DNA from: an uncultured Gemmatimonadales bacterium
GTDB taxonomy: Bacteria; Gemmatimonadota; Gemmatimonadetes; Longimicrobiales; RSA9
Direction: 5' to 3'
Length of the DNA: 64,000 nt
Assembly: GCA_963798845.1 (NCBI GenBank)
Contig: CAWCUS010000002.1
Coordinates: forward strand, 288,001-352,000
Made by a program: the position numbers and the translations under genes. Positions 1 to 20,003 of the stretch are shown here, one piece after another (position 1 is the first letter of the stretch; every line of letters starts with the position of its first letter). The notes under the pieces were generated by a model. That model saw only the letters and a program-made list of their open reading frames with translations, was not told the DNA's origin and did no database searches.

Positions 1-1236
1 GAGATCGGGTTCGGCTCGAGCGGCCGCAACGGCTCGTTCGCCATGACCGTGGTGGGGCTCGGGTTCTCGACCACGGCGTTGATCAAGGGGAAGGAGTTCC
101 TCCGGCGGGCGCACCGCTACATGATGCGGGCGGTGGACACGCTGGACGATCTGATCCAGCGGGAGGGGCTGGACTGCGAACGGACGCGACCGGGCTTCCT
201 GCGCGTGGCCACCACCCACAGCTATCTGAAGAAGCTGCGTGGGGAAGTCGATCTGATGAACTCCCTCGGCTTCGACGATATCTTCTTCCTGGACGAGCGG
301 GAGACGCGGGAGCGGGTGAACTCGCCGATCCACCTGGGGGCGCTCTGGGAGCCGCGCCTTCTCCTGATCCACCCGCTGAAGCTGGTGCGAGCCGAGAAGG
401 AGCTCGCGCAGCGGGTGGGTGCCCGGGTGTTCGAGAACACGCCGGTCACCCGCGTCCGTCGCGGGAAGCGCTTCACGCTCGAGGTGCCCGGTGCGACCGT
501 GACGGCGGAGAAGGTGGTGTTCGCCACGAATGCGTACGCGCACCTGCTGGCGCCGACGCGCCGCAAGCAGGTCCCTGCGTTCACGCACATGCAGTGCACG
601 GAGCCGCTGACTCCGCAGCAGCTCGAGCCGATAGGGTGGGCGGGCCGTGAAGGCGTGGAGGACGCCCGCAACCTGATCCACTTCTTCCGGCTGACCACGG
701 ACAATCGGATCGCCATCGGCGCGGGCCCCGTGGGCTTCACGTGGGCCAACGACCTCCACGGCGACGTGAGCCCGACGGCCTGGCGGGACCAGCAGGAGCA
801 CCTGCGCCTCACTTTCCCCCACCTGCGCGACATCCGGTTCACGCACCAGTGGGGCGGCCCGTTCTCGGTGACGCTCGACCTCAATCCGGCCATCGGCTAT
901 CTGGGCGACGAGCGGGCCGCCTACAGCGTCGGCTGCATCGGGCATGGCGTCGCCATGACGCACCTGAACGCGCAGGCGCTTCGCGACCTGGTGCTGGGGG
1001 AGAGGACCGACCTCACGGAGAGCCCCTTCGTCAACCGGCGCGTGCTGCCGTGGCCGCCCGAACCGTTGCGGAGCGTGCTCGGCCACGCGCTGCGCGGGTA
1101 TCTCCGGCTCGAGGACTGGTTGAAGGAAGGAGACCTGCGCCGTTTCAGGCGGCAGGTTCCTGCGACGGAGGCACCCGCCGCACCCACGGCTGCCGCGCCG
1201 CCGCCGCCCGCCTCACGGGGTAGCGGTCGATCGTGA
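1..1236 (+). CDS. FAD-dependent oxidoreductase, DAO/gamma-glutamylputrescine oxidase (PuuB)-like; 5' end outside the window
   Basis: Frame is open from base 1 ([12 protein letters not shown], the DAO-family motif); also ATNAY, WGGP and GCIGHGV. Confidence 0.8.
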
Positions 1237-3501: not shown

Positions 3502-4872
3502 TCAGGCCTTCACCGTCTCCCGCGAGCGCGTCTGCTCCGTCGCCGGCGCGCCCAGAAGGGGCGCCAGGACATCCCGCAGCGTCGGGCTGCCGATGACCTG
3601 GAGCTCGTAGCGGATCCGCGTGTACGGGACCGGGATCTCAACCAGCCGGGCCAGGTCGATGGGTGTCCCGATCGCCACGGCCTCGACGCCGTTCTCCACC
3701 GCCTTCCGGATCGTCGCTTCCAGGTCCTTCACCTGCTGATCGCCATAGCCCATGGCCGGGAGCAGCGTCCCGATCCCGGGGTATCGTTCATACGTGGTCA
3801 CGATCTCGCCCACCGCGAACGGCCGGGCATCCACGAGCTCGGCGGCGCCCGCCTTCTGCGCGCCGATGACCGCGGCACCGTATGTCATTCCACCGTGCGT
3901 GAGCGTGGGCCCGTCCTCGATGCAGAGGACCCGGCGGCCGCGCAGCACGTCCGGCCTGTCGACGAAGAGCGGGGAAGCGCCCTCGAGGAGCAGCGCACCC
4001 GGATTCACCTTGCGGACGTTGCGCTCCACCTGGAGCACGTCCTCCATGGCTGCGGTATCAACCTTGTTCACCAGCACCGCGTCCGCCAGACGCACGTTGA
4101 TCTCGCCCGGGTAATAGCCGAGCTCGTGCCCGGCGCGGTGCGGGTCCACGAGCGTGATGAAGACGTCGGGCTTGTAGAACGGCAGGTCGTTGTTGCCGCC
4201 GTCCCACAGGATCACATCCGCTTCCTTCTCAGCCTCTCGCAGGATCGCTTCGTAGTCGACGCCAGCGAAGACCACGCTCCCGGCGGCCATGTGCGGCTCG
4301 TACTCCTCGCGCTCCTCGATCGTGACCTGGTGACGGACCAGGTCCTCCTCGGTGGCGAAGCGCTGCACGCGCTGCTTCACCAGGTCGCCGTACGGCATCG
4401 GGTGCCGGATCACCGCCACCTTCTTCCCGGCTTCGCGGAGCAGCCGGACCACGGCGCGGCTCGTCTGGCTCTTCCCAACGCCCGTGCGGGAGGCGCACAC
4501 GGCCACGACCGGTCTGGTCGATTTCACCATGGTGGGCTCGGCGCCGAGCATGGAGAACTCCGAGCCGGCCGCGTTCACGCGGGCGGCGAGACCCATGACA
4601 TACGGATAGGAGACATCGGAGTACGCCATGATGCAACGCTCGACCCGGAGCTCGGCGATGAGCGCTTCCAGCCGGCGCTCGGGGTAGATCGGGATGCCAT
4701 CCGGGTAGAGCTCGCCCGCAAGCTCGGGCGGGTACCGTCGTTCGTCGATGTGCGGGATCTGCTCGGCCGTGAACCCCACGACCTCGGTGTCCGGATCGTT
4801 CCGGTACACCACGTTGAAGTTGTGGAAGTCGCGCCCGGCGGCTCCCAGGATCAGTGTCCGTTTCCGGCCCAT
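3502..4872 (-). CDS. Cyclic 2,3-diphosphoglycerate synthetase-like P-loop NTPase (possible arginine synthetase ArcE)
   Basis: N-terminal GAAGRDFHNFN, P-loop RTGVGKS, RHPMPYG, EEREEYEPH, WDGGNND, EDGPTLTHGGM. Confidence 0.75.
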   Translation of the reverse strand: MGRKRTLILGAAGRDFHNFNVVYRNDPDTEVVGFTAEQIPHIDERRYPPELAGELYPDGIPIYPERRLEALIAELRVERCIMAYSDVSYPYVMGLAARVNAAGSEFSMLGAEPTMVKSTRPVVAVCASRTGVGKSQTSRAVVRLLREAGKKVAVIRHPMPYGDLVKQRVQRFATEEDLVRHQVTIEEREEYEPHMAAGSVVFAGVDYEAILREAEKEADVILWDGGNNDLPFYKPDVFITLVDPHRAGHELGYYPGEINVRLADAVLVNKVDTAAMEDVLQVERNVRKVNPGALLLEGASPLFVDRPDVLRGRRVLCIEDGPTLTHGGMTYGAAVIGAQKAGAAELVDARPFAVGEIVTTYERYPGIGTLLPAMGYGDQQVKDLEATIRKAVENGVEAVAIGTPIDLARLVEIPVPYTRIRYELQVIGSPTLRDVLAPLLGAPATEQTRSRETVKA

Positions 4873-5040
4873 ATGAGGTACCCTCGCTTGGTTCGGGTTT
4901 GGCCGTGCTCTCAGGCTAAGGTGCCGCGCGCAAGAGAGGCAATCGGGAGGATTCACCGCCCGGCGGCGGGGAAATCCCTTACCCTTGCGGAGCGCCCACG
5001 TCGACTGGCCCGGGACCGGATGCGCGAGCATATTGCCGGC

Positions 5041-5970
5041 ATGAGCCGTACCCTCGAGTCACCGATCCGTTCGTTCGCCGAGCTGAAGGCTCGCGCCGCC
5101 GAAGTACCGCCCGTGCCGGTGGCCGTGGTGGCCGCCGAGAGCCCGTCGGCGCTGGCTGCCGTCGCGGCCGCGGCGGCGGCCGGAATCGCGCTGCCGGTGC
5201 TTGTTGGCGATGGCGCCCGGATCCGGGACGTCGTTGCGGCAGAGCGGATCCGCGGTCTCGACGGTGCCCGGTGGGTGGAAGCGGCGTCGCCCGAGTCCGC
5301 TGCGTCGATCGCGATCGAGCTCGCCCGGGCGGGCGAGGTGGGGATGCTGCTGAAAGGCGCGCTGCGGACGGACCAGCTGCTGCGCGCGACGCTGGACCGG
5401 GAGAACGGGCTCCGCACCGGCCGCCTTCTCTCGGACGTCCTGCTTTACGAGGACACGCTCTCGGGCTCGGTCCGCCTGGTGGGCGTGACGGACGGCGGGA
5501 TCAACCCGGCGCCGGACGCCGACGCGCTGCGCCGGATCGTGGCCAACGCCGTGGCCGTCTTCCGGGCGCTGGGCGTGGCCAGGCCGCGTGTGGCGCTGCT
5601 CAGCGCCACGGAGATGGTGACCGACGCGGTCCCGTCCACGGTCGTGGCCCGCCAGGTGGCCGACTGGGCGTCGAGGGAGCTGCCGGACGCCGACGTGGAC
5701 GGTCCGCTCGCCCTCGACAACGCCCTCATCCCTTCGGCCGCCCGCGCCAAGGGGATCACCGGTCCCGTGGCCGGCTGCGCGGACATCATGGTCACCCCCG
5801 GGATCGACGCCGGCAACATCCTGGGCAAGGGGGTCAAGTACCTCGGCGGGTCCATCACGGCGCACGTGGTCGTGGGGGCGAGAGTTCCGATCCTGATCCC
5901 GTCGCGGGTGGAGAGCGCCGAAGACAAGCTGCACTCCATCGCCTTCGGGGCGCTGGTGGGCGCGCCGTGA
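5041..5970 (+). CDS. ptb: Phosphate butyryltransferase (PTA/PTB family)
   Basis: LLKG..T, TDGGIN, DGPLALDNA, AGNILGK, SR.ES motifs; coupled to buk. Confidence 0.85.
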   Translation: MSRTLESPIRSFAELKARAAEVPPVPVAVVAAESPSALAAVAAAAAAGIALPVLVGDGARIRDVVAAERIRGLDGARWVEAASPESAASIAIELARAGEVGMLLKGALRTDQLLRATLDRENGLRTGRLLSDVLLYEDTLSGSVRLVGVTDGGINPAPDADALRRIVANAVAVFRALGVARPRVALLSATEMVTDAVPSTVVARQVADWASRELPDADVDGPLALDNALIPSAARAKGITGPVAGCADIMVTPGIDAGNILGKGVKYLGGSITAHVVVGARVPILIPSRVESAEDKLHSIAFGALVGAP

Positions 5971-7043
5971 GCCGGCGCCCGCTGATCCTCGCGCTGAACC
6001 CGGGCTCCACAAGCACGAAGTTGGGCCTCTTCGCCGACGGAGCCGCGATCCTCGAGCACACCGCCACGCATGGCGACGGCGCGCTCGCCCGTTTCGGCGG
6101 CCGTCCGATCCTGGAGCAGCTCGAATTCCGCCTGGAGGCGGTGCGCGACGCCCTGTCCGACCATGGCGCCTCGCCGCGCGACCTGGATGCGGTGGTCGGA
6201 CGGGGCGGGTTGCTGCGCCCGCTGGCCAGCGGCACGTACCGCGTCACGGATGCCATGCTCGAGGAGCTGCGCCGGGCGGAGAGGGGAGAGCACGCGTCGA
6301 ATCTGGGCGCCCTCCTGGCCCGGCGGCTCGCGGATGAGGCCGGCTGTCCGGCGTTCATCGTGGATCCGGTGAGCGTGGACGAGTGGGACGACGTCGCCCG
6401 CATCTCCGGTCTGGCGGGGCTGGACCGGGTGTGCCTGTCCCACGCCCTCAACACGAAAGCGGTGGCGAAGCGGCACGCCGCCGAGATCGAGCGCCCGTAC
6501 GACGAGCTCCGGCTCGTGGTCGCCCACCTGGGGAGCGGCGTGAGCGTCTCCGCGCACCGCGGCGGGCGTATGGTGGACGTCAACAACCCTCGCGAGGAGG
6601 GGCCGTTCTCCACGGAGCGGGCCGGCACGATCCCGGTCATGCGGCTGGTGGAGCGGGTGCTGGCCGACGGGTGGACGCCGGACGAGGCGGACCGGCGCCT
6701 GTTCCGGGAGGGGGGGCTGGTCTCCTACCTGGGCACCCGCGACCTGCGGGACGTGGAAGCGCGCATCGCCGCGGGCGACGACCGGGCCCGCCTCGTGTTC
6801 CGCGCCATGGTGTACCAGGTGGCGAAGGAGATCGGCGCCATGGGGGCCGTCCTCCATGGCCGCGTGGATGCCATACTGGTCACGGGCGGGATGGCCCGGA
6901 GTCAGGCGCTGACCGGCGCGCTCTCCGAGGCCGTGTCGTGGATCGCCTCCGTGTTCGTGTACCCGGGCGAGGACGAGCTGAGGGCGCTGGCCGAAGGGGC
7001 CGCCCGCGCGCTCGCCGGCACGGAGGCGGCGCGCGAGTACTAG
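5967..7043 (+). CDS. buk: Butyrate kinase
   Basis: GTG start overlapping the ptb stop; LNPGSTSTK, GRGG, HASNLG, VDPVSVDE, HALNTK, HLGSG, YPGEDE. Confidence 0.93.
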   Translation: MSRRPLILALNPGSTSTKLGLFADGAAILEHTATHGDGALARFGGRPILEQLEFRLEAVRDALSDHGASPRDLDAVVGRGGLLRPLASGTYRVTDAMLEELRRAERGEHASNLGALLARRLADEAGCPAFIVDPVSVDEWDDVARISGLAGLDRVCLSHALNTKAVAKRHAAEIERPYDELRLVVAHLGSGVSVSAHRGGRMVDVNNPREEGPFSTERAGTIPVMRLVERVLADGWTPDEADRRLFREGGLVSYLGTRDLRDVEARIAAGDDRARLVFRAMVYQVAKEIGAMGAVLHGRVDAILVTGGMARSQALTGALSEAVSWIASVFVYPGEDELRALAEGAARALAGTEAAREY

Positions 7044-7053
7044 CGGTCGGGCG

Positions 7054-7791
7054 TCAGAAGCTGAACGCCGCCGCGCCCACCATCCACTCGGCGCCCGTGT
7101 CGAAGGCTACATCGTTGGCTTCCGCCGTCTTCGGCGGGACCGTCAGACGGATCGCCTCCTGCCAGTGATCGCGGGCGATGAACAGGTAGTTGGAGAGTGC
7201 CCCCAGCATCACGGTGCTGGACAGCTTGTCGTTCCCCAGCTCCCGGGCCAGCGCCAGCGCAGGGAAGGTGAGCAGCGTGATCCCGCGCGCTTCCGTTCTC
7301 GCTTCGAGGTCGCGAGGGTAGCCGGCGGTCTTGAGCGACTCGATGCTCGGCGCGATCCGCTGGTCGTTCACGAGCACGATGCCGCCCGGCTCCACCAGCG
7401 ACAGGTGCCGCGCGGCCTCGAGGCGCTCGAACGCCACGAGGAAATCGGCCTCGCCTTCCGGGATGGAGGAGGAGAGGGCCGCGTCGCCGAAGCGCACGGC
7501 GGTGAGAACCGTGCCGCCCCGCTGCGACATTCCGTGCACTTCCGAGGTCAAGACCTGGTGCCCTGCCAACGCCGCGGCCGTGGCCAGCACCCGTGTGGCG
7601 AGGACGGAGCCCTGACCGCCGACTCCCGCAAGCACGATGTTCGTCACATCGCCGTGAGCGACAGGGCGGACGCTTCCGCCGCGGTCGGACGCCTGCTCGA
7701 CCGGGCCTGCCGCTCCCGCGGTCAGCTCTTCCAGGTCCGTGGCCGCGCCCTGCAGGTCCTCGGACACCGACACCCTCGTGCTATCGGTCAC
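7054..7791 (-). CDS. iorB: Indolepyruvate:ferredoxin oxidoreductase beta subunit
   Basis: AGVGGQG and SEVHGMSQRGG motifs; directly downstream of iorA. Confidence 0.9.
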   Translation of the reverse strand: MTDSTRVSVSEDLQGAATDLEELTAGAAGPVEQASDRGGSVRPVAHGDVTNIVLAGVGGQGSVLATRVLATAAALAGHQVLTSEVHGMSQRGGTVLTAVRFGDAALSSSIPEGEADFLVAFERLEAARHLSLVEPGGIVLVNDQRIAPSIESLKTAGYPRDLEARTEARGITLLTFPALALARELGNDKLSSTVMLGALSNYLFIARDHWQEAIRLTVPPKTAEANDVAFDTGAEWMVGAAAFSF

Positions 7792-10700
7792 GGGTCGCCC
7801 CCTTCCTCATGTGGTTGCTGGCCAGCTCCGCCGCGCGGCGGCCCGTGGCCACCGCCTGCGTCACAGTGCCGTGGCCGAACGCCGCATCGCCGCACGCGAA
7901 CACGCCCTGCCGCGACGTGGCCCCGGCGAAGTTGACGTCGATCCGACCGTTCGCCCGGATGCCGCTCCCGTCCAGGAACGCCAGGTCCGTCTGCTCTCCC
8001 ACGGCCAGGATCACCGCGTCACACTGCTCGATCTCCTCGCTCTCCGCCACGGGTACCGGGCGCCGGCGCCCGCTCCCGTCCGGCTCCCCCTGCGCCATGG
8101 CGATGGTCTCGAGCGCGGTCATCCGCCCGCCCTCTGCCACCACCCGGATCGGCGCCCGCTGGAACCGGAACGTCACCCCCTCCTCCCGCGCCTCCTCGAC
8201 TTCGTCGGGGATGGCGGGCATCTCGCGTTCCGTACGCCGGTAGACCACGTCCACCGTGGCGCCCAGCCGGCGGGCCGCGCGGGCGCAGTCGATGGCCGTG
8301 TTCCCGCCGCCCACCACCGTGACGCGGCGACCCAGCTCCACGGTCTCGCCGGCGTTGAAGCGGCGGAGGAACTCGAGCCCGCCCAGCACGGACCCGGGCG
8401 CGTCGACGGCGCCCTCGAGCGTGATGGCGCGAGCGGCGTGCTGGCCCACGGCCACGATCACCGCGTCGTGCTCGTCCGCCAGCTCCGCCAGCGTCGTGTC
8501 CCGGCCGATTCGGGCGCCCGTGCGGAACTCCACGCCAATCGCCGTGAACCGGGCCAGCTCGGCGTCCAGCACCTCGCGCGGGAGGCGGAACGGAGGGATG
8601 CCGCTCCGGAGCATGCCGCCGGGCGCAGCGTCGGCCTCGAAGACCGTGACGCGCCACCCCTTGCGACGGAGCTGCCACGCCGCGGCAAGTCCGGCGGGGC
8701 CCGACCCGATCACCGCCACCGAGCGACCGAGCTCCTCGCCCGGGGAGAGCGTGTCTGCCGGGTAGTTCTCGATCGCCCAGTCGCCCAGAAACTGCTCCAC
8801 CGCCCGCACCGATATCTTGTTCGGGCCGGCCGGGAACCGCTCCACCAGCGAGCGGTGGCGACCCGCGTACGTGGCCGCCTGCGGGAACCCGAGGGCGTTC
8901 ACGTCGTGGTCGCAGGGGTGGGGACAGACACGGGCCGAGACCGCAGGCAGCGGATTCGAGCGCAGCACGACCTCGAGCGCGTCGGCGAGCCGCCCCTGGT
9001 CCACCAGCTCCAGCATGAGCGAGACGTCGATCCCCGCGTTGCAGTCGGCGCACACCTGCTGACAGAGCGTGCAGCCGTTGCAGAGGAGGTCGTTCACCGC
9101 GAGACGACCGTCGCTCTCCTCGATGGCCGGGCAACCCAGCCGGGTGCACGCAAAGCAGTCCGTGCATCGGTCGGCCTCGAGGAAGATCGGGTCGCCGAAC
9201 GAGACCTTCTCCTTGAGCACGCACGGCTTCTCGGCCACCACCACCGCCGGGGCGTCCGTCCCGGACGCCTGATCCAGAGTGCGCCATGCGCCCAGGAGGT
9301 CGTACGGGTCCACCGTGCGGACGTCCTCCACGCCAACGGCCCGGGCGATCGCGGCGATGTCGATGCGCGGCGCGTCGCCCTGGCCGAGCGTGTGCCCGGT
9401 GCCCGGGTGATCCTGGTGCCCGGTCATGGCGGTGGTCCGGTTGTCCAGCACCACCACCGTCCCCTTGCCCCGGTTGTAGACCACGTCCATCAGCCCCGTG
9501 ACGCCGGAGTGATAGAACGTGGAGTCCCCGATCACGCTCACCACCCGCTTCGCATCCGCCGGCGCCAGCACCTTCGCCATGCCGTGCGCCATGCCGATGG
9601 AAGCGCCCATGTTCATGCACGCATCCATGGCATCCAGCGGCGCGAGCGCGCCGAGCGTGTAGCAGCCGATGTCCCCGCTCACGATCGCATCCATGCGCCC
9701 CAGGGCGTGGAACACGCCGCGGTGCGAGCACCCCGGACAGAGCGCCGGCGGCCGTGACGGCAGCGCCGCGGGTACGTCCGCACCCGCCCCGGCGCCGTCC
9801 GCCTCCTCACGGGGAGTGACGCCCGGCCCGGCGACCGCGCGACGAAGCAGCCCCACGCTCAGCTCGCCATACCGTGGCCACGCACGCGCCTCCACCGCCA
9901 CGCCGCGCGCCCGGATCTGCTCCTCGAGGAACGGCTCCAGCTCTTCCGCAACGAACAGCCGCTTCCCCGCGTGCTCCTCAGCGAACTGCCGGATCGCAGC
10001 CTCCGGGAGTGGATACGTCATCCCGAGGCGGAGCACCGGCGCCGCCGGGAAGGCCTCCCGGACGTAGAGGTAGGGGACACCGGCGGTGATGAAGGCGACG
10101 TCGCCTTCGCCCGGCTCCGCTTCCGCCCACCGCTCGGCTTCCGCGGCGAGCGCCGGCATCCGCTCCTCCTCGATCCAGCGGTGGCGGATCCGGCCATGGG
10201 CGGGGAGCACCACGTTCTTCTGACGATCCTTGTGATACGCCCGAAGTCCCACGGGCTCCCGCTTCCCGGCTTCCACCGGCCCCGTGCCGTGGCTCAGGCG
10301 CGTCGTGGTCCGGAGCAGCACCGGCGTGTCGTACCGCTCGGACAGCGCGAAAGCCGCGGCCGTGTAGCGCCGCGCGTCCGCCGGCGTCGACGGCTCCAGA
10401 AGCGGGATGCGGGCGTGGCGGGCGAACAGGCGGTTGTCCTGCTCGTTCTGAGACGAGTGCATGCCGGGGTCGTCGGCGCTCACGACCACCAGCCCGCCGT
10501 TCACCCCCATGTATGCGGACGAGAAGAGCGGGTCGGCCGCCACGTTCACGCCGACGTGCTTCATCGTGGCCAGCGCCCGAGCGCCGCCCAGTGACGCGCC
10601 CACAGCCACTTCCAGCGCCACTTTCTCGTTCGGCGACCACTCGCAGTCGACGCCGCCGAGGTGCGAAAGCGCTTCCAGGATCTCCGTGCTCGGCGTGCCC

Positions 10701-10864
10701 GGGTAGCCGGCGCCCACCCGCACCCCGGCTTCCCACGCCCCCCGCGCGATCGCCTGGTTCCCCGACAACGGCAGCCGCCGGCCCCCGGACCCGCTACCGG
10801 AAGCGACGCCCACCCACGCGCGCTCCTGCCTCTCTGGCCGCGCTGCGGCCCTTCTATCCGTCAT
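7781..10864 (-). CDS. iorA: Indolepyruvate oxidoreductase alpha subunit fused to a GltD-like FAD/NAD(P)H oxidoreductase
   Basis: SGNQAIARG, YPGTPSTE, DDPGMHSSQNEQD, CPGCSH, GDIGCY, GDSTF; two ferredoxin Cys motifs; then RVCPHPC, GSGPAG, GIPPFRLP, GGGNTAID, YRR, GDA. Confidence 0.9.
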   Translation of the reverse strand: MTDRRAAARPERQERAWVGVASGSGSGGRRLPLSGNQAIARGAWEAGVRVGAGYPGTPSTEILEALSHLGGVDCEWSPNEKVALEVAVGASLGGARALATMKHVGVNVAADPLFSSAYMGVNGGLVVVSADDPGMHSSQNEQDNRLFARHARIPLLEPSTPADARRYTAAAFALSERYDTPVLLRTTTRLSHGTGPVEAGKREPVGLRAYHKDRQKNVVLPAHGRIRHRWIEEERMPALAAEAERWAEAEPGEGDVAFITAGVPYLYVREAFPAAPVLRLGMTYPLPEAAIRQFAEEHAGKRLFVAEELEPFLEEQIRARGVAVEARAWPRYGELSVGLLRRAVAGPGVTPREEADGAGAGADVPAALPSRPPALCPGCSHRGVFHALGRMDAIVSGDIGCYTLGALAPLDAMDACMNMGASIGMAHGMAKVLAPADAKRVVSVIGDSTFYHSGVTGLMDVVYNRGKGTVVVLDNRTTAMTGHQDHPGTGHTLGQGDAPRIDIAAIARAVGVEDVRTVDPYDLLGAWRTLDQASGTDAPAVVVAEKPCVLKEKVSFGDPIFLEADRCTDCFACTRLGCPAIEESDGRLAVNDLLCNGCTLCQQVCADCNAGIDVSLMLELVDQGRLADALEVVLRSNPLPAVSARVCPHPCDHDVNALGFPQAATYAGRHRSLVERFPAGPNKISVRAVEQFLGDWAIENYPADTLSPGEELGRSVAVIGSGPAGLAAAWQLRRKGWRVTVFEADAAPGGMLRSGIPPFRLPREVLDAELARFTAIGVEFRTGARIGRDTTLAELADEHDAVIVAVGQHAARAITLEGAVDAPGSVLGGLEFLRRFNAGETVELGRRVTVVGGGNTAIDCARAARRLGATVDVVYRRTEREMPAIPDEVEEAREEGVTFRFQRAPIRVVAEGGRMTALETIAMAQGEPDGSGRRRPVPVAESEEIEQCDAVILAVGEQTDLAFLDGSGIRANGRIDVNFAGATSRQGVFACGDAAFGHGTVTQAVATGRRAAELASNHMRKGATRDR

Positions 10865-11049
10865 CCGGCTCGCTCCGGAGTTGCTGACCGGGTGCTCCCG
10901 TCACACACTCGAAAAGCTACCCCGGATGCTCAACCGTACAATCGGGGATTCACTGATTTCCCCGGGCTCCTTATCGGGAGTTTCCCCCCTCGGCACGTAG
11001 GGGTTTCGCCCGCGGACGCGCGATCGCACACCCGCGCCCGAGGACGTCG

Positions 11050-11520
11050 CTATGTCCTCGCGACGTCCCCGCCAGCACCGCGCCGCCGCACCAGAAACCG
11101 GAGCTCGCCCGCCTGGACAACCTCGCGGCCCGCCCTCAGCTCCGCCGACAGAGTCACCACACCCCGGTCTCCCTGCCGCGAAACCCGCTTCGACGACACC
11201 TCGAGCGCCACGTGCACCTCCGACCCGGGCACCAGCGGGGCCACGAAGTCCCAGGTCAGCCCCAGGAACGCGATCAGCGTCCCCCGCGTCAGCCCGCGCC
11301 GGTTCAGCAGACCGGTCGCCACGGCAAGACCCAGCGCACCGTGGGCAATCCGTCGGCCGAACACCGACTGCGCCGCGTACGACTCGTCCAGGTGCAGCGG
11401 GTTCACGTCCCCGGACACAGCCGCGAACGCCTCCACGTCCGCCTGCGTCACGACCCGGCTCCCGGTCAGGTAGCCGCGGCCCACCTCGAAGTCGTCGAAC
11501 GTCAGGGATTCCTCGGGCAT
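11050..11520 (-). CDS. MaoC family (hotdog fold) dehydratase
   Basis: FAAVSGDVNPLHLD hydratase-2 motif, IAHG; SD CAGGAG before ATG 11520. Confidence 0.85.
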   Translation of the reverse strand: MPEESLTFDDFEVGRGYLTGSRVVTQADVEAFAAVSGDVNPLHLDESYAAQSVFGRRIAHGALGLAVATGLLNRRGLTRGTLIAFLGLTWDFVAPLVPGSEVHVALEVSSKRVSRQGDRGVVTLSAELRAGREVVQAGELRFLVRRRGAGGDVART

Positions 11521-11604
11521 CGTCGGCTCCTGGTCACGCGAAGGCGCTCGGTCCCCGGTGCTCCTCCGCGTGTCCGCGTGAAGACCCTTGACACCCGGGC
11601 CCCG

Positions 11605-11633
11605 TTGGCGACGTATTACAGCAACACTACGAT
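11605..11633 (+). promoter_or_regulatory. Putative sigma70 promoter of paaX and the bcr operon
   Basis: TTGGCG-N17-TACGAT in an AT-richer intergenic patch, 22 nt upstream of the paaX ATG. Confidence 0.5.
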
Positions 11634-11655
11634 CGTTAACCATTCGTGACAAGAG

Positions 11656-12513
11656 ATGCCCGCTCGACGTCCCCAGGACCTGGTGTTCACGCTCTTCGGC
11701 GATTTCCTGCTGCACCGGCCATCGCCGGTGTGGGTGGGCAGCCTGATCGCGCTGCTGGAGCCGCTGGGGCTGAGCGAAACGAACGTGCGGACGGTGCTGT
11801 CGCGGATGGCGGGGAAGGGTTGGCTGAGAGCGGAGCGGGCGGGTCGCCGCAGCTATTACGCGCTGACGGGGCGTGGCCGGCGGCTTCTGGAGGAGGGGGA
11901 GACGCGGATCTACCGGCCGCGGGATGCGGGGGGTTGGGACGGGGAGTGGACGCTGCTGGCGTATTCGATTCCGGAGGAGCAGCGGGGTCAGCGGGACCGT
12001 CTGCGGGTTCGCCTGGAGTGGCTCGGGTTCGGTTCGCTGGGGAACGGGCTGTGGGTGACTCCGCACGACGTCGCCGACCCGGTGCGTGAGATGGCGGATG
12101 AGCTGGAGGTGAGGGAGTACGTGGAGGTGTTCCGCGGCCGGCACCTGGGCTTGGGCGACGCCCGCGAGCTGGTGGGTCGCTGCTGGGATCTGGCGGGGCT
12201 GAACGCGCGTTACGAGGCGTTCATCGAGCGTCATCTGGACGGGTGCGTGGCGCTGAAGGAGGAGGGCCATGCGTCCATCGAGCCGCGGGACGCGTACGTA
12301 CGGCGGTTCCGGCTGGTGCACCAGTACCGGGACTTCCCGCTCCAGGACCCGTTCCTCCCCAGGGAATTGCAGCCTGAGCACTGGGCGGGGGAGTGCGCGC
12401 TGAGCCTGTTCAACCATTACCACGAGCTGCTGGCGGCGCCGGCGGACCGTTTCGTGGAGCCGCTCTTCGAAGCTGGAAGTTCACGAAGGCGGCCGGCCGT
12501 TGTGGTCAGGTGA
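11656..12513 (+). CDS. paaX: PaaX family transcriptional regulator
   Basis: LVFTLFGD, VRTVLSRM, YYALT, WDGEW, LGFG..NGLW, WDL, DPFLP.EL.P..W motifs. Confidence 0.92.
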   Translation: MPARRPQDLVFTLFGDFLLHRPSPVWVGSLIALLEPLGLSETNVRTVLSRMAGKGWLRAERAGRRSYYALTGRGRRLLEEGETRIYRPRDAGGWDGEWTLLAYSIPEEQRGQRDRLRVRLEWLGFGSLGNGLWVTPHDVADPVREMADELEVREYVEVFRGRHLGLGDARELVGRCWDLAGLNARYEAFIERHLDGCVALKEEGHASIEPRDAYVRRFRLVHQYRDFPLQDPFLPRELQPEHWAGECALSLFNHYHELLAAPADRFVEPLFEAGSSRRRPAVVVR

Positions 12514-12532
12514 GGCGACCGTCCGTGGTGGT

Positions 12533-12611
12533 ATCACACGAAGAGCGCGAAGCCACGGAGTCTCTCTCGTGATCTTCGTCTTCCTTCGTGGCCTTCCTGT
12601 CTTCGTGCGAT
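12533..12611 (+). promoter_or_regulatory. Long intercistronic stem-loop abutting the oah Shine-Dalgarno
   Basis: ATCACACGAAGA (12533-44) pairs with TCTTCGTGCGAT (12600-11); inner GAAGCCACGGAG pairs with CTTCGTGGCCTTC; AAGGAG follows immediately. Confidence 0.5.
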
Positions 12612-12623
12612 AAGGAGCCGAGC

Positions 12624-13734: not shown

Positions 13735-14502
13735 GTGGCATACCGGCACCTTCGCGTCGACACCGGCGCCGCTGTCGCCCGTGTGGTCCTGAATCGTCCT
13801 CCGCTGAACGTCCTGACCATCGAGATGCTGGACGAGCTGGTCGAGGCGATCGCGGCCGCCTCGGCGGATCCGGCGACGCGGGTGGTGGTGCTCACGGGGG
13901 AGGGCAGAGCCTTCTGCGCCGGGGTGGACGTGGCGGACCACACAGTCGAGCGCGTGGGAACAATGATCGAGTCGTTCTCCCGCGCCATCGGCGCGCTCCT
14001 GTCGATGGATCTTCCGGTGGTGGCGGCGCTGAACGGCGCCGCGCTGGGCGGCGGCCTCGAGCTCGCGCTGGCCTGCGACGTGGTCCTGGCGCGGGCGGGG
14101 TCCAAGCTGGGCCAGCCGGAAATCCGCCTCGGCGTCTTTCCCCCGGCCGCGGCGGCGCTGCTCCCCCGGCGCGTGGGAGTGCAGCGGGCGCTGGACCTGG
14201 TGCTCACGGGCCGCACGGTGACGGCAGAAGAGGCGGCCCCGATGGGGCTGGTCACGGCCGTGCTCCCGGCCGACGACTTCGGCGCGGCCGTGAACGACTA
14301 CGTGGCGCAGGTGGCCGGTCTCAGCCGGCCGGTCCTGGCGCTGGCGAAGCGAGCCGTGATCCAGGGGCTGGACCGGCCGCTGTCGGCGGCGTTGGTGGGG
14401 GCGGACACGCTGTACCTCAACGAGCTGATGGCTCTGCGCGATCCCCACGAGGGACTGGCGGCGTTCGCGGAGAAGCGCGCGCCGGTCTGGAGCGACGAGT
14501 AG
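13735..14502 (+). CDS. dch: Cyclohexa-1,5-diene-1-carbonyl-CoA hydratase (Dch/BamR-like crotonase)
   Basis: AFCAGVDVADH, LGGGLEL, GQPEIRLGVFPP, YLNELM, EGL.AF.EKR.P.W; operon context. Confidence 0.82.
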   Translation: MAYRHLRVDTGAAVARVVLNRPPLNVLTIEMLDELVEAIAAASADPATRVVVLTGEGRAFCAGVDVADHTVERVGTMIESFSRAIGALLSMDLPVVAALNGAALGGGLELALACDVVLARAGSKLGQPEIRLGVFPPAAAALLPRRVGVQRALDLVLTGRTVTAEEAAPMGLVTAVLPADDFGAAVNDYVAQVAGLSRPVLALAKRAVIQGLDRPLSAALVGADTLYLNELMALRDPHEGLAAFAEKRAPVWSDE

Positions 14503-14503
14503 C

Positions 14504-15697
14504 ATGGCGACACCGAAGCGCGAGATCCCGGCCCCGGAGCGGCTGCTGGACATCGACCTCTCGACCCCGCTCGACGAGGTGCTGGCCCGCTGCCGCGAGG
14601 TGGTGGAGGACGCGGAGTACCCGACCGTGCGGAAGTGGCGGGAGGGTGGTGGCAAGGTGCTCGGCCACTTCCAGGTCTACTTCCCCGAGGAGCTGGCGCA
14701 CGCGGCGGGCATGCTCCCGGTGAAGATCCGGGGCGGGCAGGTGGACCGGCGGGAAGCCGACTCCCGCTTCGGCTCCGCCATCTGCTCCATCCCCCGGACC
14801 ACGCTCGAGCTCGCCATGAACGGCACGCTGGTGCCGGACCTGTTCGTCACCCACCCGATCTGCGACGTGGCCCGCAACCTGGCGGGGATCTGGGAGCGCA
14901 ACGTGACCACGCCGGCGCAGATCCTCTACTTCCCGCAGAACCCCAACTCCCGCTTCTCCGCCGACTTCCTCACCGCGGAGTACCGGCGTCTGCTGGGCGA
15001 GATCGAGGCCGTCGTGGGCCGGACGGTGGCGGAGGACGAGATCCGCGATTCGGTGGCCCTTTTCAACGAGAACCGTCGCCTGCTGCGTGAGCTCTACGCC
15101 ATCAAGCGGGAGGAGCCGTGGCGCCTGCCGGTGGACGAGGCGTACGTGCTGGTGGCGCTGGCCGGGCTCATCCCCCGGGAGGAGCACAACCACGTGCTGC
15201 GCACGATCATCCCGCGCATCCGGGAGCGCGAGGCGAGAAAGCAGGACCGGATGCGTGTGGTGTTCGAGGGTGGGTTCTGCGAGCAGCCGCCTCTCGACCT
15301 GCTCCGGTCCATCGCCCAGTTCGTGTACGTGGTGGATGACGACCTCCTCATCGGCCTGCGCTGGATCACCGAGGACGTGGATCTGGCGGGCGATCCGGTG
15401 GGCAGGCTGGCGGAAGCGTACCTGGAGCGGTCGTCGTACAGCCCCGTGCAGCACGACCTGCGCAAGCCGAAGGAGCAGATGCTGCTGCAGCGGATCCTCG
15501 CCGCACGCGCCGAGGCGGCCATCGTGGCCGCGGCCAAGATGTGCGAGCCGGGTCTGGACGAGCAGGTGGCGTACTCCCAGGCGCTGGACCGCGAGAAGAT
15601 CCCGTACTTCGTCACCGAGTTCGAGGAGAACATGACGGCCTACGACCATCTGCAGATCCAGCTCGAGACCTTCGTCGAGAACCTGCTCTTCGAGTGA
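14504..15697 (+). CDS. bcrC: Class I benzoyl-CoA reductase subunit C (2-hydroxyacyl-CoA dehydratase family)
   Basis: [42 protein letters not shown]. Confidence 0.85.
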
Positions 15698-15705
15698 GGG
15701 GGCGC

Positions 15706-17037
15706 ATGAATCCGGTGACTGCGGACACGATCCACGGGCGGGCCTTCCGCCAGGGCAGGGAGCTCTTCGACGACTGGTACGGCCAGTTGACCCGCGCTCA
15801 CGAGACGGGCGAGCAGGCGGCGTACGTGTTCGTGATGGGCAGCCTGATGGAGATCCTGCGCACGTTCGGGCTTCACGGGGTCTTCCCGGAGATCAACTCG
15901 CTCCAGACTGCGGTGAAGAAGGTCTCGGACGGGTACCTGAGCCAGGCGGAGGACGAGGGCTTCTCGCCGGACGTGTGCGGCTACGTGAAAGCGGACTACG
16001 CCCTCCAGCGTCGCAACGGCGAGCACCCGCGCGGCATGATCCCGCCGCCGGCCATATCGGTGCTCACCAACGCGTGCAACACGTATCTCAAGTGGGGCGA
16101 GATCTGGGAGCGCATGTACGACGCTCCGGTCTTCACGGTGGACATCCCGCAGTCCCGCTCCGTTTCCGACAGCGCGGCGGGTGTCGGGTTCGCGGCCGAC
16201 CTGGAGTACGTGCGGCGGCAGCTGGACGAGCTGATCGAGGTGCTCGAGGGTCTCACGGGCAGGCGCTTCGACATCGACCGCTTCCGCGAGGTGCTGGGTC
16301 ACGTCAACGACATGGGGCGGCACTACCGGCGCGTGCTGGAGCTGAACGCCCGGGCGCCGGCCGCGTTCGACGCGGTGCTGGAGGGCACCATGTACCTGGG
16401 GGTGGCCAATGCGCTCCGCGGCACGAAGGAGGGCGCGGACTACTTCCGCGACCTGGCCGAGGAGCTGGAGCTGCGCATGGCCGAGGGCCGCGGGGCCCTG
16501 GGCGAGACGCCCGAGCGGCACCGCCTGATCTTCGTGGGCGTGCCCTGCTATCCGATCTTCTCGCGCTTTCACGCCATGTTCAGCGGGTGGGGCGGGGCGT
16601 TCGTGAGCTCCACCTACCTGTGGTTCGCCTCCGGCGGCCTCGACCTGGATTTCGAGTACGACCTGTCGCGCCCGCTGGAGAGCCTGGCCGAAGGCGTGCT
16701 GCGCGGCGTCCGCCGCGCCACGGACGCCATGCTGTTCCAGGACCGGCTGCTCATCGAGGCCGTGGACCGCTACCACGCGGACGGGGTGGTCTACCACCCC
16801 GTGAAGAGCTGTCGCACCGTCTCCACCAGCCTGGCCGACAGCCGCCGGGTGGTGCTCCGGGAGCGCGATGTTCTCGCTCTCTACATCGAGAGCGACATGA
16901 TGGACAAGCGGGTGGTCTCGGAAGCCCAGCTGAAGAACCGCATCGACGCCTTCTTCGAGGGGCTGGAGAGTCGGAGGCTGCGGATGAACGGCGCGGCCGC
17001 CGGCAGCGGCGCCGCCGCCAGCGAGGAGGTCGCATGA
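15706..17037 (+). CDS. bcrB: Class I benzoyl-CoA reductase subunit B
   Basis: [41 protein letters not shown]. Confidence 0.85.
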
Positions 17038-17903
17038 GCTACGCGGGCGGAGTGGACGTCGGCTCGACCCAGACCAAGGCCGTGGTGGTGGACGGGGACC
17101 GCCGCATCGTGGGCCGCAGCCTCATCGACACGGGGGCCAACGTGGTGGAGGCGGCGGAGAACGCGTTCGCGCTGGCGCTGGCGGAGGCCGGTCTCGAGCG
17201 CGACGACGTGGACTTCGTCATCGGGACCGGCTACGGCCGCTACAAGGTGGAGTTCGGCGACACCCAGGTGACGGAGATCGTGTGCCACGCCCGCGGGGCG
17301 GCGGAGATGTTCCCGGGCACGCGCACGGTGCTGGACATGGGGGGCCAGGACACGAAGGCGATCCGGGTGCAGCGCGGTGGCGAGGTCCTGGACTTCTGCA
17401 TGAACGACAAATGCTCGGCGGGCACCGGCCGCTTCCTCCAGTCGGCGGCCGCGGCGCTGGAGCTGGACCTGGCGGAGCTCGGGCCCACGGCGCTGCGGGG
17501 GCGTCGGCCGGTGCCCATCAGCACCACGTGCACCGTGTTCGCGGAGTCGGAGGTGCTGTCGTGGCTGGCGAGGGGTCGCAAGCTAGAGGACATCCTGCTG
17601 GGCGTGCACCAGTCCATCGCCAAGCGCTCGTTCGGCCTTCTCAAGCGGGTGGGCGTGGAGGAGGAGGTGACCTTCACGGGCGGGGTGACGAAGAACCCGG
17701 CCATGGTGCACGTGCTGAACGAGCTGCTCGGCACCGAGATGAACGTGGGCGCCGAGTCCCACTTCATCGGCGCTCTGGGCGCGGCCCTGTTCGCGCTCGA
17801 GCGGGCGGAGGGCGGGGTCATCCCCGCGGGCGATCTCACCGGCGCGGCCGCGGACGGCGATGCGGCCCGGAGCTGCGCCACGGGACGGGAGGTGGTCGCA
17901 TGA
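17034..17903 (+). CDS. bcrA: Benzoyl-CoA reductase ATPase subunit A (short, BzdQ-sized ASKHA activase)
   Basis: [52 protein letters not shown]. Confidence 0.8.
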
Positions 17904-18721
17904 GCTGCACGGCGGGGGTGGACGTCGGCTCGACGTACACGAAGGCCGCGATCCTCGACGACGCCGGCCAGTTGCTGGGCCGGAGCATGGCGCCGACCGG
18001 CTTCCGCCTGGAGGCGGCGGCGCGGGCGGCGCTGGACGCCGCGCTGGCCGAGGCGGGTGTCGACGCGGCGGACGTGGTCTACACCGCCACCACCGGCTAC
18101 GGCCGCAACCAGGTGGCGTTCCGCGACGTCCAGGCCACGGACCTGACGGCGCAGTCGTGGGGGACTCGCTGGTTCTTCCCGTCTACCCGAACGGTGCTGG
18201 ACATCGGCGGGCAGACCATGAAGGCCATGCGCGTGGACGACGCGGGCAAGGTCCGCTCGTTCCGCCTGAACGACAAGTGTGCCGCGGGCACGGGCGCGTT
18301 CCTGGAGAAGACGGCGCGCTACCTCGGCTACGGCCTCGAGGAGATCGGGATGCTCGTCCAGGGCGCGGAGGCGTCGGTGCCCATCAGCGGCGTGTGCGCG
18401 GTGTTCGCCGAGTCGGAGGTGATCAACCACGTGAGCAACGGGAGCCAGCCCGGCGAGATCATGCTGGGCGCCATGGAGTCGCTCATCGAGAAGAGCGTGC
18501 GGCTCATGAAGCGCGTGCAGATGGAGCCGGAGTTCACGCTGGTGGGCGGGATCATGCGCTTCCCCACCATGGTGCAGGTCATGCGCGAGCACCTGGCGGA
18601 GGGCGTCAACGTGCCGCCCGAGCCGCTGGTCCAGTACACCGGCGCCATTGGTGCCGCGATCCTCGCACGGCGCAGGCTGGAGAAGCTCGAGGCCGAGGAC
18701 GCCGAGGCCGCGGCCGCGTGA
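17900..18721 (+). CDS. bcrD: Benzoyl-CoA reductase ATPase subunit D (ASKHA activase)
   Basis: [46 protein letters not shown]. Confidence 0.8.
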
Positions 18722-18984
18722 GCGCGCCGGTGCCCGCACTCGACATCGGGCCGGCCGCCAGCGAGCGCGTCCGGGAGCGCGACGGGGCCCTGGCGCTGGA
18801 TGGCTGGACGCGACGCTTCATCGGCGCCCCGCCCCGTCTTGGGGAGATGGCGGCGCTCTACCGCTCGGTGGGCCAGGAGGTGCTGCTCGAGCCCCTGGAG
18901 GACGATGACCTGGCGCACGAGTGCGCCGGGTGCACGCTCGCCCTCTCCCTCTTTCGCGTCGTCTACACGAGGATCCCCCGATGA
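18718..18984 (+). CDS. Small hypothetical protein with CxxC, inside the bcr operon
   Basis: 4-bp overlaps with both neighbours (GTGA with bcrD, ATGA with had); 88 aa with GWTRRF..PRL.E...LY and ECAGC. Confidence 0.75.
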   Translation: MSAPVPALDIGPAASERVRERDGALALDGWTRRFIGAPPRLGEMAALYRSVGQEVLLEPLEDDDLAHECAGCTLALSLFRVVYTRIPR

Positions 18985-20003
18985 AGGCCGCTCTCTTCCA
19001 TGGCGCCAACCGCCCGCTCACCATCGAGGACATCCCCGTGCCGGAGCCGGGCCGCGGCGAGGTGCTGGTGAAGGTGGCGGGGTGCGGTGTGTGCCACACG
19101 GACCTCCACTACATCGACCACGGCACGCCCACCTTCAAGAACCCGCCGATGGTCCTCGGCCACGAGATCGCGGGCACACTGGCCAGCCCCGACCCGACCG
19201 GGCGGCTGCTTGAGGGCGAGCACGTGCTCCTCCCGGCCGTGCTGTCGTGCGGCCACTGCGACGCGTGCCGCGGGGGGCGGGAGAACATCTGCCAGAACGG
19301 GATCATGCTGGGCAACAACATCGATGGCGGGTACGCCGAGTACGTCGCCGTCCCCGCAAAGGACGTGTTCCGGCTCCCCGACGAGATCCCGCTCGTGGAG
19401 GGCTCCATCATCGCCGACGCCCTCACCACCCCCTTCCACGCGGTGATGAACCGCGGCCGCGTCCGCCCGGGCGACCGGGTGGTGGTGGTGGGGTGTGGCG
19501 GGGTCGGACTGAACGTCGTGCAGATGGCCGCCGTGGTGGGCGCTCGGGTGGTGGGCGTGGACGTGTCGCCCGAGAAACTGGCGTGGGCCGAGCGCCTGGG
19601 CGCGGAAGCCACGTTGAACCCGACCGGGGTGGAGCGCCCGGACAGGGCGCTTCGCGCCCTCACCGACGGCGGCGCCGACGTGGCGTTCGAGGCCGTCGGC
19701 CGCCCCGACACGCAGGCGCTGGCCGTGGACGCGGTGAAGACCGGCGGGCGCGTGGTCTTCGTGGGCTACAGCCCGAAGGCCATGGAGCTCAACGCCGGCC
19801 GGGTCATGTTCCGGGAGCTCGAGGTCGTGGGATCGCTCGGCTGTCGCCCGGTCGACTACCCGCGCGTCATCGACCTCGTCCGCCAGGGCCGCGTCGAAGT
19901 GACGGCGCTGGTGACCCGCCGCTTCACGCTCGACGAGATCGGCGACGCGTTCGACTTCCTGCGCAGCGGGGCATCGATCCGGAGCGTGGTGACCCCCACC
20001 TGA
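18981..20003 (+). CDS. had: 6-hydroxycyclohex-1-ene-1-carbonyl-CoA dehydrogenase (Zn-ADH, Had/BamQ-like)
   Basis: CGVCHTDL, LGHEI, structural Zn C..C..C...C, ADA.TTP, GCGGVG; operon context. Confidence 0.82.
   Translation: MKAALFHGANRPLTIEDIPVPEPGRGEVLVKVAGCGVCHTDLHYIDHGTPTFKNPPMVLGHEIAGTLASPDPTGRLLEGEHVLLPAVLSCGHCDACRGGRENICQNGIMLGNNIDGGYAEYVAVPAKDVFRLPDEIPLVEGSIIADALTTPFHAVMNRGRVRPGDRVVVVGCGGVGLNVVQMAAVVGARVVGVDVSPEKLAWAERLGAEATLNPTGVERPDRALRALTDGGADVAFEAVGRPDTQALAVDAVKTGGRVVFVGYSPKAMELNAGRVMFRELEVVGSLGCRPVDYPRVIDLVRQGRVEVTALVTRRFTLDEIGDAFDFLRSGASIRSVVTPT

Follow-up and report, generated by a model that had tools for sequence, protein, structure and literature searches.

The closest described systems are 2-oxoacid oxidoreductases (OFOR) that work with a flavoprotein partner. 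Passages of PMC5109826 describe phenylglyoxylate:NAD+ oxidoreductase, PadEFGHI, as an OFOR with an NAD(P)-reducing flavoprotein partner, the 2-oxoglutarate:NADP+ oxidoreductase of Azoarcus evansii has the same design, judging by its title and a citing sentence in PMC8163825, and so does, judging by a title in the reference list of PMC13768988, the pyruvate:NADP+ oxidoreductase of Euglena. The gene analysed here comes from an uncultured Gemmatimonadota bacterium and joins IorA, the alpha subunit of indolepyruvate ferredoxin oxidoreductase (IOR), to a flavoprotein of the NfnB/GltD/DsrL type in one reading frame. It is found in a stretch of 64,000 nucleotides (the window), corresponding to C2:288001-352000 of the source genome. 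Fused IorA is an unstudied variant of the known design, and the domains and motifs of the gene make it likely that it encodes a self-contained, ferredoxin-independent arylpyruvate:NADP+ oxidoreductase.

The fusion shares with the Pad, Azoarcus and Euglena enzymes an OFOR core and a flavoprotein that hands electrons to pyridine nucleotide. In the Pad and Azoarcus enzymes, however, the flavoprotein is a separate subunit, and all three belong to a different OFOR subfamily. The flavoprotein of the Euglena enzyme is of the P450-reductase type, while PadF is presumably GltD-like. With the IorAB enzyme of the Pyrococcus furiosus type (TIGR03336 / TIGR03334) the fusion has in common an end-to-end IOR_alpha match, the thiamine pyrophosphate (TPP) motif, the cluster cysteines, both ferredoxin motifs and an adjacent iorB. 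It differs from IorAB by about 420 extra C-terminal residues with one Fe-S site and sites for FAD and NADPH, by a predicted acceptor that is NADP+ instead of free ferredoxin, and by a score 4 bits below the cut-off. The parts of the gene are as follows.

7781..10864, minus strand: fused iorA gene, 1027 amino acids, IorA part followed by flavoprotein part, stop codon at 7781-7783
9047-10864, minus strand: IorA part, residues 1 to about 606, from domain and profile matches
9041..9082, minus strand: junction, the five-cysteine stretch C595-x2-C598-x2-C601-x3-C605-x2-C608, which reads CNGCTLCQQVCADC
7784-9046, minus strand: Fe-S flavoprotein part of the NfnB/GltD/DsrL type, residues about 607-1027, from domain and profile matches

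The open reading frame (ORF) runs through 1027 codons with neither stop nor frameshift. Its GC content at third codon positions is 0.91 in a sequence of 71% GC, and the GC pattern over the codon positions is that of a real gene. Pfam places POR_N at residues 42-205, TPP_enzyme_C at 398-543, Fer4_10 at 561-605, Fer4_20 at 598-653 and Pyr_redox_2 at 715-1008. The NCBIfam model IOR_alpha (TIGR03336) matches residues 33-606 over profile positions 5-591 of 595 with 646.6 bits, and GltD-like NCBIfam models match from about 590-606 to 1021, leaving six residues beyond the end of the flavoprotein match. A first reading made from the sequence alone (the sequence-only reading) had described an ORF of this length in which an IorA motif passes straight into a GltD-type module, and these domains bear it out, as do the motifs: CNGCTLCQQVCADC at residues 595-608 (DNA 9041-9082), the FAD motif GSGPAG at 720-725, the NADPH-fold motif GGGNTA at 852-857 and YRR at 875-877.

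The junction is also covered by a contig of a public run. A 249-base Logan contig of the public run X1, possibly from the same sample as the assembly of the window, spans 8871-9119 with no differences. Logan contigs of the same run span 9258-9407, likewise with no differences. Those of run X2 are small pieces only, and two of its three records run on into unlike sequence. Logan contigs were the only material for this comparison, and the remainder of 8500-9600 is without cover. No RNA run was among those listed for the junction stretch. Because the architecture is common to many clusters, the cysteines are invariant and a contig crosses without difference, the junction is no assembly artefact and the fused ORF is genuine.

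Searches in a collection of 5.8 billion proteins returned 7999 scored candidates, 7483 of them at E<=1e-100. Among the best 120 listed clusters at 90% identity, 101 have the same short fusion as the window (the query counted), one has a long fusion, 11 have IorA only and seven are fragments. The fusion is therefore widespread. Records of the short type that carry source names come from Longimicrobiales, Gemmatimonadota and Bipolaricaulota/Acetothermia, and they are annotated as 'indolepyruvate ferredoxin oxidoreductase alpha subunit' or as 'FAD-dependent oxidoreductase'. The best 150 representatives at 50% identity comprise 31 long fusions, two short fusions, 110 proteins with IorA alone and seven partial sequences.

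At about 1100-1150 amino acids, the long type begins with the TPP core, continues with a flavoprotein that keeps the canonical CPxxCxxxC and closes with a 2x[4Fe-4S] domain at the C-terminus. It has the same three building blocks as the window's fusion and is 34-42% identical to it over the full length, but the flavoprotein is inserted before the C-terminal ferredoxin domain. A FastTree phylogeny built from 156 rows of the IorA core groups 17 of the 18 short-type rows, and a single unfused row, in one starred set. The short type thus forms approximately one clade, whereas the long type is scattered, with 13 changes of state. Hence fusion of the flavoprotein module to IorA, or its loss, has happened repeatedly.

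The five-cysteine junction serves at the same time as the second ferredoxin motif of IorA and as the first cysteine motif of the Fer4_20/NfnB-type domain. The TPP site (GDSTF at 446-450, DN at 474-475 and TAMTGHQ) is invariant across an alignment of 59 short-type fusions, and so are the four [4Fe-4S] cysteines of the TPP domain (C376, C379, C401 and C548) and both motifs of the 2x[4Fe-4S] ferredoxin-like domain (C567/C570/C573/C578 and C595/C598/C601/C605). Residues C608, C647, C651, Y875 and R876 are also invariant, and E690 and R877 are conserved in at least 90% of the same sequences. The alpha subunit of an IOR is therefore complete in these features and in its adjacent iorB partner, and the C-terminal part has the FAD and NAD(P)H Rossmann motifs, including YRR, of the NfnB/GltD/DsrL type.

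Passages of PMC7596348 give the ligands of NfnB as C39, C42, C47 and C100 for the distal cluster and C51, C90, C96 and E117 for the proximal cluster, and describe YRR as the motif that holds the NADP phosphate. When the fusion is aligned to NfnB of T. maritima (4ylf_B), C608 falls on C51, C647 on C90 and E690 on E117. C651 stands in for C96, since the spacing in the fusion is C-x3-C, as in Stn-type relatives. The equivalent of C100, the fourth distal ligand, is Val655. Only profile positions 24-83 of 113 of Fer4_20 match in the ORF, and the complete two-cluster N-terminal set of that domain is absent: the proximal ligands are there and the distal C100 is not. The same position in 102 short-type sequences is Val in 69, Thr in 13, Ile in nine, another residue than Cys in seven and Cys in one, with three giving no match to the regular expression, whereas among 32 long-type sequences it is Cys in 22, with ten giving no match. 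The loss of this cysteine in the short type fits the idea that the ferredoxin domain of IorA took over the place of the distal NfnB cluster. The short type is also a compact natural case of two Fe-S wires joined through one shared cysteine motif.

The C-terminal half matches structures of the NfnB/GltD/DsrL family (4ylf_B, 5jca_L, 2vdc_G and 8oh5_C) with E values of 1e-52 to 1e-89 over about 415 residues and has the proximal-cluster ligands, the FAD GxGxxG, GGGNTA and YRR in common with them. Its closest solved relatives are 9n5u_A (E 1.4e-89), the Stn-type 8oh5_C and NfnI 5jca_L, all NADPH-binding and NfnB-like. The fusion departs from the family in that IorA's second ferredoxin motif takes the place of the N-terminal cysteine motif or has merged with it, in an insert of about 20 residues after CPHPC, and in the absence of a partner such as NfnA, GltB or DsrAB. 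It also lacks the ferredoxin domain that DsrL and the long-type fusions have at the C-terminus, and the copy linked to dsrAB is another gene of the genome, on contig C3.

The fused gene is followed by the following genes.

7054..7791, minus strand: iorB, with a POR gamma-type domain; the longest ORF shares 11 bases with the stop end of the fused gene, and the true start is possibly further downstream
5973..7043, plus strand: acyl kinase of the acetate/butyrate kinase family (buk-like), convergent with iorB
5002..5970, plus strand: phosphate acyltransferase of the PTA_PTB family (ptb-like), start approximate

The iorB gene matches NF005322 with E 4.3e-59, under the cut-off of that model. An iorB follows the fusion in all 25 genome loci with downstream sequence, and the remaining three of the 28 genome loci end within the fused gene. 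The buk-ptb pair comes after iorB in ten loci labelled Gemmatimonadota, one of which shows buk alone at a contig end, and likewise in L060, L061 and L062 (three metagenome loci, of which L062 has buk alone at a contig end). An ORF at 5445-6857 on the minus strand was rejected as a gene since it is the antisense frame of the real ptb and buk. According to passages of PMC13285125 (2026), IOR and VOR genes often stand beside genes with PF01515 and PF00871. The surroundings, with iorB and a convergent ptb-buk pair, therefore point to oxidative use, from 2-oxoacid through acyl-CoA and acyl phosphate to acid and ATP.

Fused IorA together with IorB would oxidatively decarboxylate arylpyruvates, or 2-oxoacids like them, to acyl-CoA. 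From TPP the two electrons would go to the cluster of the TPP domain, on to the two clusters of the ferredoxin domain, to the proximal cluster and to FAD, and would leave as a hydride to NADP+. There would be four [4Fe-4S] clusters on this path and no need for free ferredoxin, and the convergent ptb-buk pair would convert the acyl-CoA to acid and ATP. The oxidation of 2-oxoacids by NADP+ is strongly downhill. Because a keto-acid enzyme is here fused to an NADPH-binding flavoprotein, the enzyme probably passes electrons to NADP+ itself. This is the self-contained arylpyruvate:NADP+ oxidoreductase that the sequence-only reading had proposed, and it fits the TPP site, the series of Fe-S motifs, the FAD and NADPH motifs with YRR, iorB and ptb-buk; we infer from these the substrate, the direction, NADP+ as the acceptor and the number of clusters.

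The flavoprotein module is not confined to the fused gene. A POR_N scan of the source genome gave five loci, three of which have an NfnB/DsrL-like protein: the fused iorA, a porC-[GltD+PorD fusion]-porA-porB locus and a GltD-like-alpha-beta locus. The latter two are found at L037:6733-11151 and L038:5839-10711, on contigs C1 and C4. The GltD+PorD fusion has 581 amino acids with a delta subunit of the PorD type and scores above the PRK12771 cut-off, and in the other locus a separate gene of 617 amino acids stands before the alpha and beta genes. The idea that every OFOR of the genome has a flavoprotein was rejected, because only three of the five POR_N loci do. The module is found again in eight Bipolaricaulota-type loci, where a por operon with a fused (flavoprotein) delta subunit lies directly upstream of a fused iorA; in one of them that was annotated (L021), genes for superoxide dismutase and peroxiredoxin follow downstream. 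DsrL-like genes linked to pyruvate/ketoisovalerate oxidoreductase genes are mentioned, and set aside, in passages of the DsrL paper (PMC7596348). The NfnB/DsrL-like flavoprotein module is a general OFOR accessory in these lineages.

The two remaining OFOR loci of the genome are without a flavoprotein and adjoin RnfB-like and RnfC-like genes. At L059:4145-15749 (C2:66145-77749) there is a row of genes that starts with a two-subunit OFOR and an RnfB-like gene and goes on with a PFOR-like frame, very long at up to 1853 amino acids and with an uncertain start, and an RnfC-like gene. This locus looks like a ferredoxin-linked branch that lacks the flavoprotein module. A single small ferredoxin was found in the genome, a 7Fe-type gene of 77 amino acids on contig C6.

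Several points speak against a self-contained arylpyruvate:NADP+ oxidoreductase. The IOR_alpha score falls just under the curated cut-off of 650.9, which makes the substrate of the IorA part uncertain. The number of clusters and the assignment of their ligands rest on alignment. The homologous FAD bifurcates in Nfn, which by analogy would leave room for a more complex electron path or for ferredoxin as a second acceptor, and the genome has a ferredoxin-linked branch in its two OFOR loci without flavoprotein, the RnfB/RnfC-like genes and the 77-residue ferredoxin. Genes for IOR, fused or unfused, recur in three arrangements beside genes for an aryl-CoA reductase (bcr) in the phylum, which hints at an added role. 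Finally, no publication on fused IorA was found among the papers listed in literature searches.

The bcr genes of the window lie upstream of the fused gene, behind a regulator and a hydratase, in the following order.

11050..11601, minus strand: MaoC-type hydratase, start approximate, part of the PaaX/bcr module
11656..12513, plus strand: PaaX-family repressor, divergent from MaoC and upstream of oah, 255.2 bits (cut-off 264.55)
12588-13733, plus strand: oah-like gene of the crotonase family, from profile match
~13744-14502, plus strand: dch-like gene of the crotonase family, from profile match
14504..18721, plus strand: class I aryl-CoA reductase of four subunits, from profile and PDB matches
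14504-15697, plus strand: MbdN/BcrC-like subunit, matching 9g87_B (MbdN) with E 1e-155 over residues 21-397
~15742-17037, plus strand: BcrB-like subunit, from profile match
17037-17903, plus strand: MbdQ-like ATPase, matching 9gai_D (MbdQ) with E 1.2e-111
~17906-18721, plus strand: second ATPase subunit, from profile match
18921..20003, plus strand: had-like Zn-dependent alcohol dehydrogenase, from profile match

The oah, dch and had genes and the four reductase subunits all score under the curated cut-offs of the Thauera and Azoarcus models. The reductase stays under the cut-offs for the Thauera type (TIGR02263/02260: 274.3 against 421.15 and 207.2 against 486.55), and scores for the bzd type (TIGR03190-92) are lower still. 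It has two subunits of the HGD-D type and two ATPase subunits of the BcrAD type. By sequence the cluster is a class I aryl-CoA reductase of the 3-methylbenzoyl-CoA reductase (MBR) type, because the closest solved proteins, which are also its closest characterised relatives, are the MBR subunits MbdN and MbdQ. Clusters of this type in the phylum, with the order oah-dch-bcrCBAD-had, often have a PaaX-family regulator upstream. The series PaaX-oah-dch-bcr-had recurs without any IOR in L048, L052 and L053, and since L052 has the MaoC-PaaX pair too, both MaoC and PaaX belong to the bcr module and not to the fused gene.

One alternative is an electron hub, in which the Fe-S chain of IOR gives low-potential electrons from arylpyruvate oxidation to the neighbouring reductase, through the ferredoxin domain of IorA or the distant small ferredoxin, with the flavoprotein as an NADPH-linked overflow valve or entry point. 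We regard this as unlikely, although there are precedents beside class I clusters. Passages of PMC9973337 and PMC5658619 describe an OFOR or a GltD/Nfn-like flavoprotein at such sites: in Thauera benzoyl-CoA reductase is served by KorAB with Fdx, R. palustris requires the Nfn-like AadN to use benzoate (both PMC9973337), and in Azoarcus BzdM is accompanied by BzdV, a putative NADPH:ferredoxin oxidoreductase (PMC5658619). The window differs from these donor systems in that the cluster has no ferredoxin gene, the OFOR is of the IOR type instead of the KOR type and carries the flavoprotein as a fusion, and the linkage is found in few fusion-bearing genomes.

The arrangement of the genes in relatives bears on this in both directions. 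Exactly the arrangement of the window, with 65-89% identity across the genes, recurs in L060, and in L012 bcr is found on the opposite, downstream side of the fusion. L061 ends at an HMGL-like gene, such as L012 has immediately before its bcr genes, and the two may come from one organism. Seven genomes from three genera of another family (L040-L046) have an unfused iorAB, without ptb-buk, on the strand of bcrD and 3.5-4.4 kb downstream of it. Between bcrCBAD and this iorAB are genes that resemble isopropylmalate dehydrogenase (on the other strand), HMGL and transglutaminase. Close BcrC sequences (at least 61% identity) are present in 47 of 301 sampled genomes of the phylum, the window's own counted. 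Thirteen of the sampled genomes have both such a BcrC and IorA (E<=1e-100): the two are within 10 kb in eight, on different contigs in four and 384 kb apart in one.

On the other hand, the remaining 34 of these 47 lack an IorA at E<=1e-100, and the seven genomes with unfused iorAB are kin. Independent events of IOR-bcr linkage are therefore few, about three arrangements. Counted over loci with at least 8 kb of flank on one or both sides (16 of the 28 genome loci and six of the 22 metagenome loci), bcr is near the fusion in only two of 22, namely L012 among the genome loci and L060 among the metagenome loci. In 28 other genomes with the short fusion, for which completeness is not given, a BcrC of at least 64% identity was found in three, one of 39% in one, one of 25% in one and none (E<=1e-10) in 23. 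None of the 12 fusion genomes labelled Bipolaricaulota/Acetothermia, Fraserbacteria or Thermotogae has a BcrC above 25% identity, and the closest sampled relative with the fusion (G167, 76% identity, 95% complete) gave no BcrC match. It is with ptb-buk that the fused form keeps company across relatives, and not with bcr, and a fused flavin that reduces NADP+ would draw off electrons that the reductase needs.

The window has no match to the ferredoxin families PF00037 and PF12838, and in its first 34 kb the fused gene itself is the only frame with a CxxCxxCxxxC motif. The sequence-only reading was thus right that the bcr operon has no ferredoxin, but this is not peculiar to the fusion: no small ferredoxin gene was found near any of the 21 other MBR-type clusters examined in the phylum (none of 22 with the window). 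In the nine IOR-linked bcr loci (L040-L046, L012 and the window), ferredoxin-type motifs occur near bcr only within IorA, which favours an electron hub. By contrast, 12 of 12 fetched bcr loci without IOR have no OFOR, GltD-like gene or small frame with a ferredoxin motif within about 10 kb, and two of the 12 contain large frames with ferredoxin-type motifs. Which protein feeds electrons to class I reductases becomes a testable question in a new phylum.

The electron hub does not stand as a property of the fusion, which is widespread and mostly unlinked to bcr, the very finding by which the sequence-only reading had said it should fall. In its favour there are still the eight genomes of 13 with IOR within 10 kb of bcr. 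The IOR-bcr link could be metabolic, with aromatic amino acids converted to aryl-CoA and PaaX sensing aryl-CoA, or it could be electronic, for which KorAB and AadN are the precedents. That the fusion lies beside a PaaX-linked MBR-type cluster is a matter of two modules having come to stand together in a lineage-specific way, and no function built into the fusion. Because bcr stands beside it in only a few relatives, the fused enzyme is probably not the dedicated electron supplier of the cluster. The broader claim that the Gemmatimonadota IOR, fused or unfused, is the dedicated low-potential electron source of the MBR-type ATP-dependent reductase by way of the IorA ferredoxin domain is, in our view, doubtful as well. 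If it holds, the NfnB-like flavin of the fused form would set the split between ring reduction and NADPH, and the two electrons from each phenylpyruvate would equal the two needed to reduce the ring derived from it.

A dual-acceptor or bifurcating enzyme, in which the NfnB-like FAD couples the oxidation of 2-oxoacids to both NADP+ and ferredoxin or balances the two pools, is improbable. Among solved structures the C-terminal half is closest to the NfnB-like modules of the bifurcating Nfn and Stn enzymes, the ferredoxin domain of IorA is fully kept in the short type, and the genome has Rnf-like genes and ferredoxin-dependent OFORs. However, an NfnA-type partner is neither fused nor adjacent, and the sole match of the genome to PF10418 (DHODB_Fe-S_bind) is on contig C5, far from any GltD-like gene. 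GltD, DPD and DsrL use the same module without bifurcation (for DsrL, in passages of PMC7596348).

The reverse, anabolic direction is still harder to support and very improbable. Arylacetyl-CoA would be carboxylated reductively to arylpyruvate at the expense of NADPH, in the service of amino-acid synthesis, and buk-ptb would activate the acid; that pair is able to run both ways, and IOR-type enzymes are anabolic in some anaerobes. NADPH is, however, about 180 mV too positive for the couple of acyl-CoA + CO2 and 2-oxoacid unless extra energy is supplied, and the surroundings are catabolic for peptides and amino acids, with an S46 peptidase, a beta-eliminating lyase and an ADP-forming acyl-CoA synthetase. 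The weakest explanation, two genes merged by an error of sequencing or assembly, has nothing in its favour and is already contradicted by the same architecture in 101 of the 120 best-listed clusters from many independent assemblies, the invariant junction cysteines, the frame free of stops and frameshifts and the run contig across the junction.

If the fused enzyme reduces NADP+ directly, as is predicted for the arylpyruvate:NADP+ oxidoreductase, it would represent a widespread class of ferredoxin-independent 2-oxoacid oxidoreductases. Respiring or oxygen-exposed Gemmatimonadota, and also Bipolaricaulota, could then use the oxygen-sensitive chemistry of OFORs on amino acids with a yield of NADPH. 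Annotation pipelines name the proteins 'IorA' or 'FAD-dependent oxidoreductase', so that a metabolic reconstruction which takes reduced ferredoxin to be their product would go wrong in these lineages.

Upstream of the fused iorA there is a conserved element, CCGATTGT, at 10938-10945 on the minus strand. It is also found in L060, L014, L015 and L010, of which L010, L014 and L015 are relatives that have the fused gene without the bcr module, and it may be the fused gene's own promoter or operator. In the window and in L060 the element is followed after about 18 bases by TAGCTT (10914-10919 on the minus strand in the window). A promoter and terminator scan of 6900-12700 found nothing. MaoC was rejected as the first gene of an IOR operon, on the grounds that L052 has MaoC-PaaX without IOR and that close relatives without MaoC keep CCGATTGT. 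Across the stop codon of MaoC, at 11042-11068 on the minus strand, lies a perfect 9-bp inverted repeat, GGACGTCGC ... GCGACGTCC, with no T-run after it.

Beyond ptb, two further genes of the window are kept near the fused gene in some relatives.

3502..4872, minus strand: P-loop protein of the 'cyclic 2,3-diphosphoglycerate synthase / putative GTPase' kind, start at 4872 or 5031
43..1236, plus strand: FAD-dependent oxidoreductase of the DAO family, kept as a neighbour in L014, L015 and L034

The P-loop protein has 78-83% identity in L014, L015 and L034 and is better conserved than the nearby iorB. The DAO-family oxidoreductase could be a source of the 2-oxoacid from an amino acid. At greater distance the window has, on the minus strand, an S46 dipeptidyl peptidase (27059-29197) and a beta-eliminating lyase of the tryptophanase / tyrosine phenol-lyase family (38631-40337), which both fit a setting of peptide and aromatic amino-acid catabolism. 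The ADP-forming acyl-CoA synthetase, also on the minus strand (54354-56697), is found in two overlapping ORFs, one with the CoA-binding and ligase domains (54847-56697) and one with ATP-grasp_5 (54354-55211). This split may be due to a frameshift, or there may be two genes whose starts have been set wrongly.

Some observations were made in other loci. In L040-L046 the bcr genes are part of an operon with the order had-oah-SDR-thiolase-DUF35-(dch)-bcrCBAD (e.g. L040:1419-15941). An HMGL-like gene is present between the bcr and IOR modules in L012 as well, and behind bcrD in L057. In the Bipolaricaulota-type locus L065 (17128-22572), at 4-9 kb downstream of the fused iorA, there are genes distantly related to dch (47%), to an HGD-D subunit (26%) and to an activase (38%), and this set looks more like a 2-hydroxyacyl-CoA dehydratase than a ring reductase.

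The fourth NfnB/DsrL-like paralogue of the source genome is the DsrL-like gene linked to dsrAB on contig C3. At L039:2495-8387 it is the third gene in the series dsrA-dsrB-DsrL-like-cobyrinic acid diamide synthase, the last being dsrN-like. The same contig has a frame resembling the beta subunit of adenylylsulfate reductase (C3:126932-127636). Together, the dsr genes and this frame suggest a dissimilatory sulfur pathway in this Gemmatimonadota genome.

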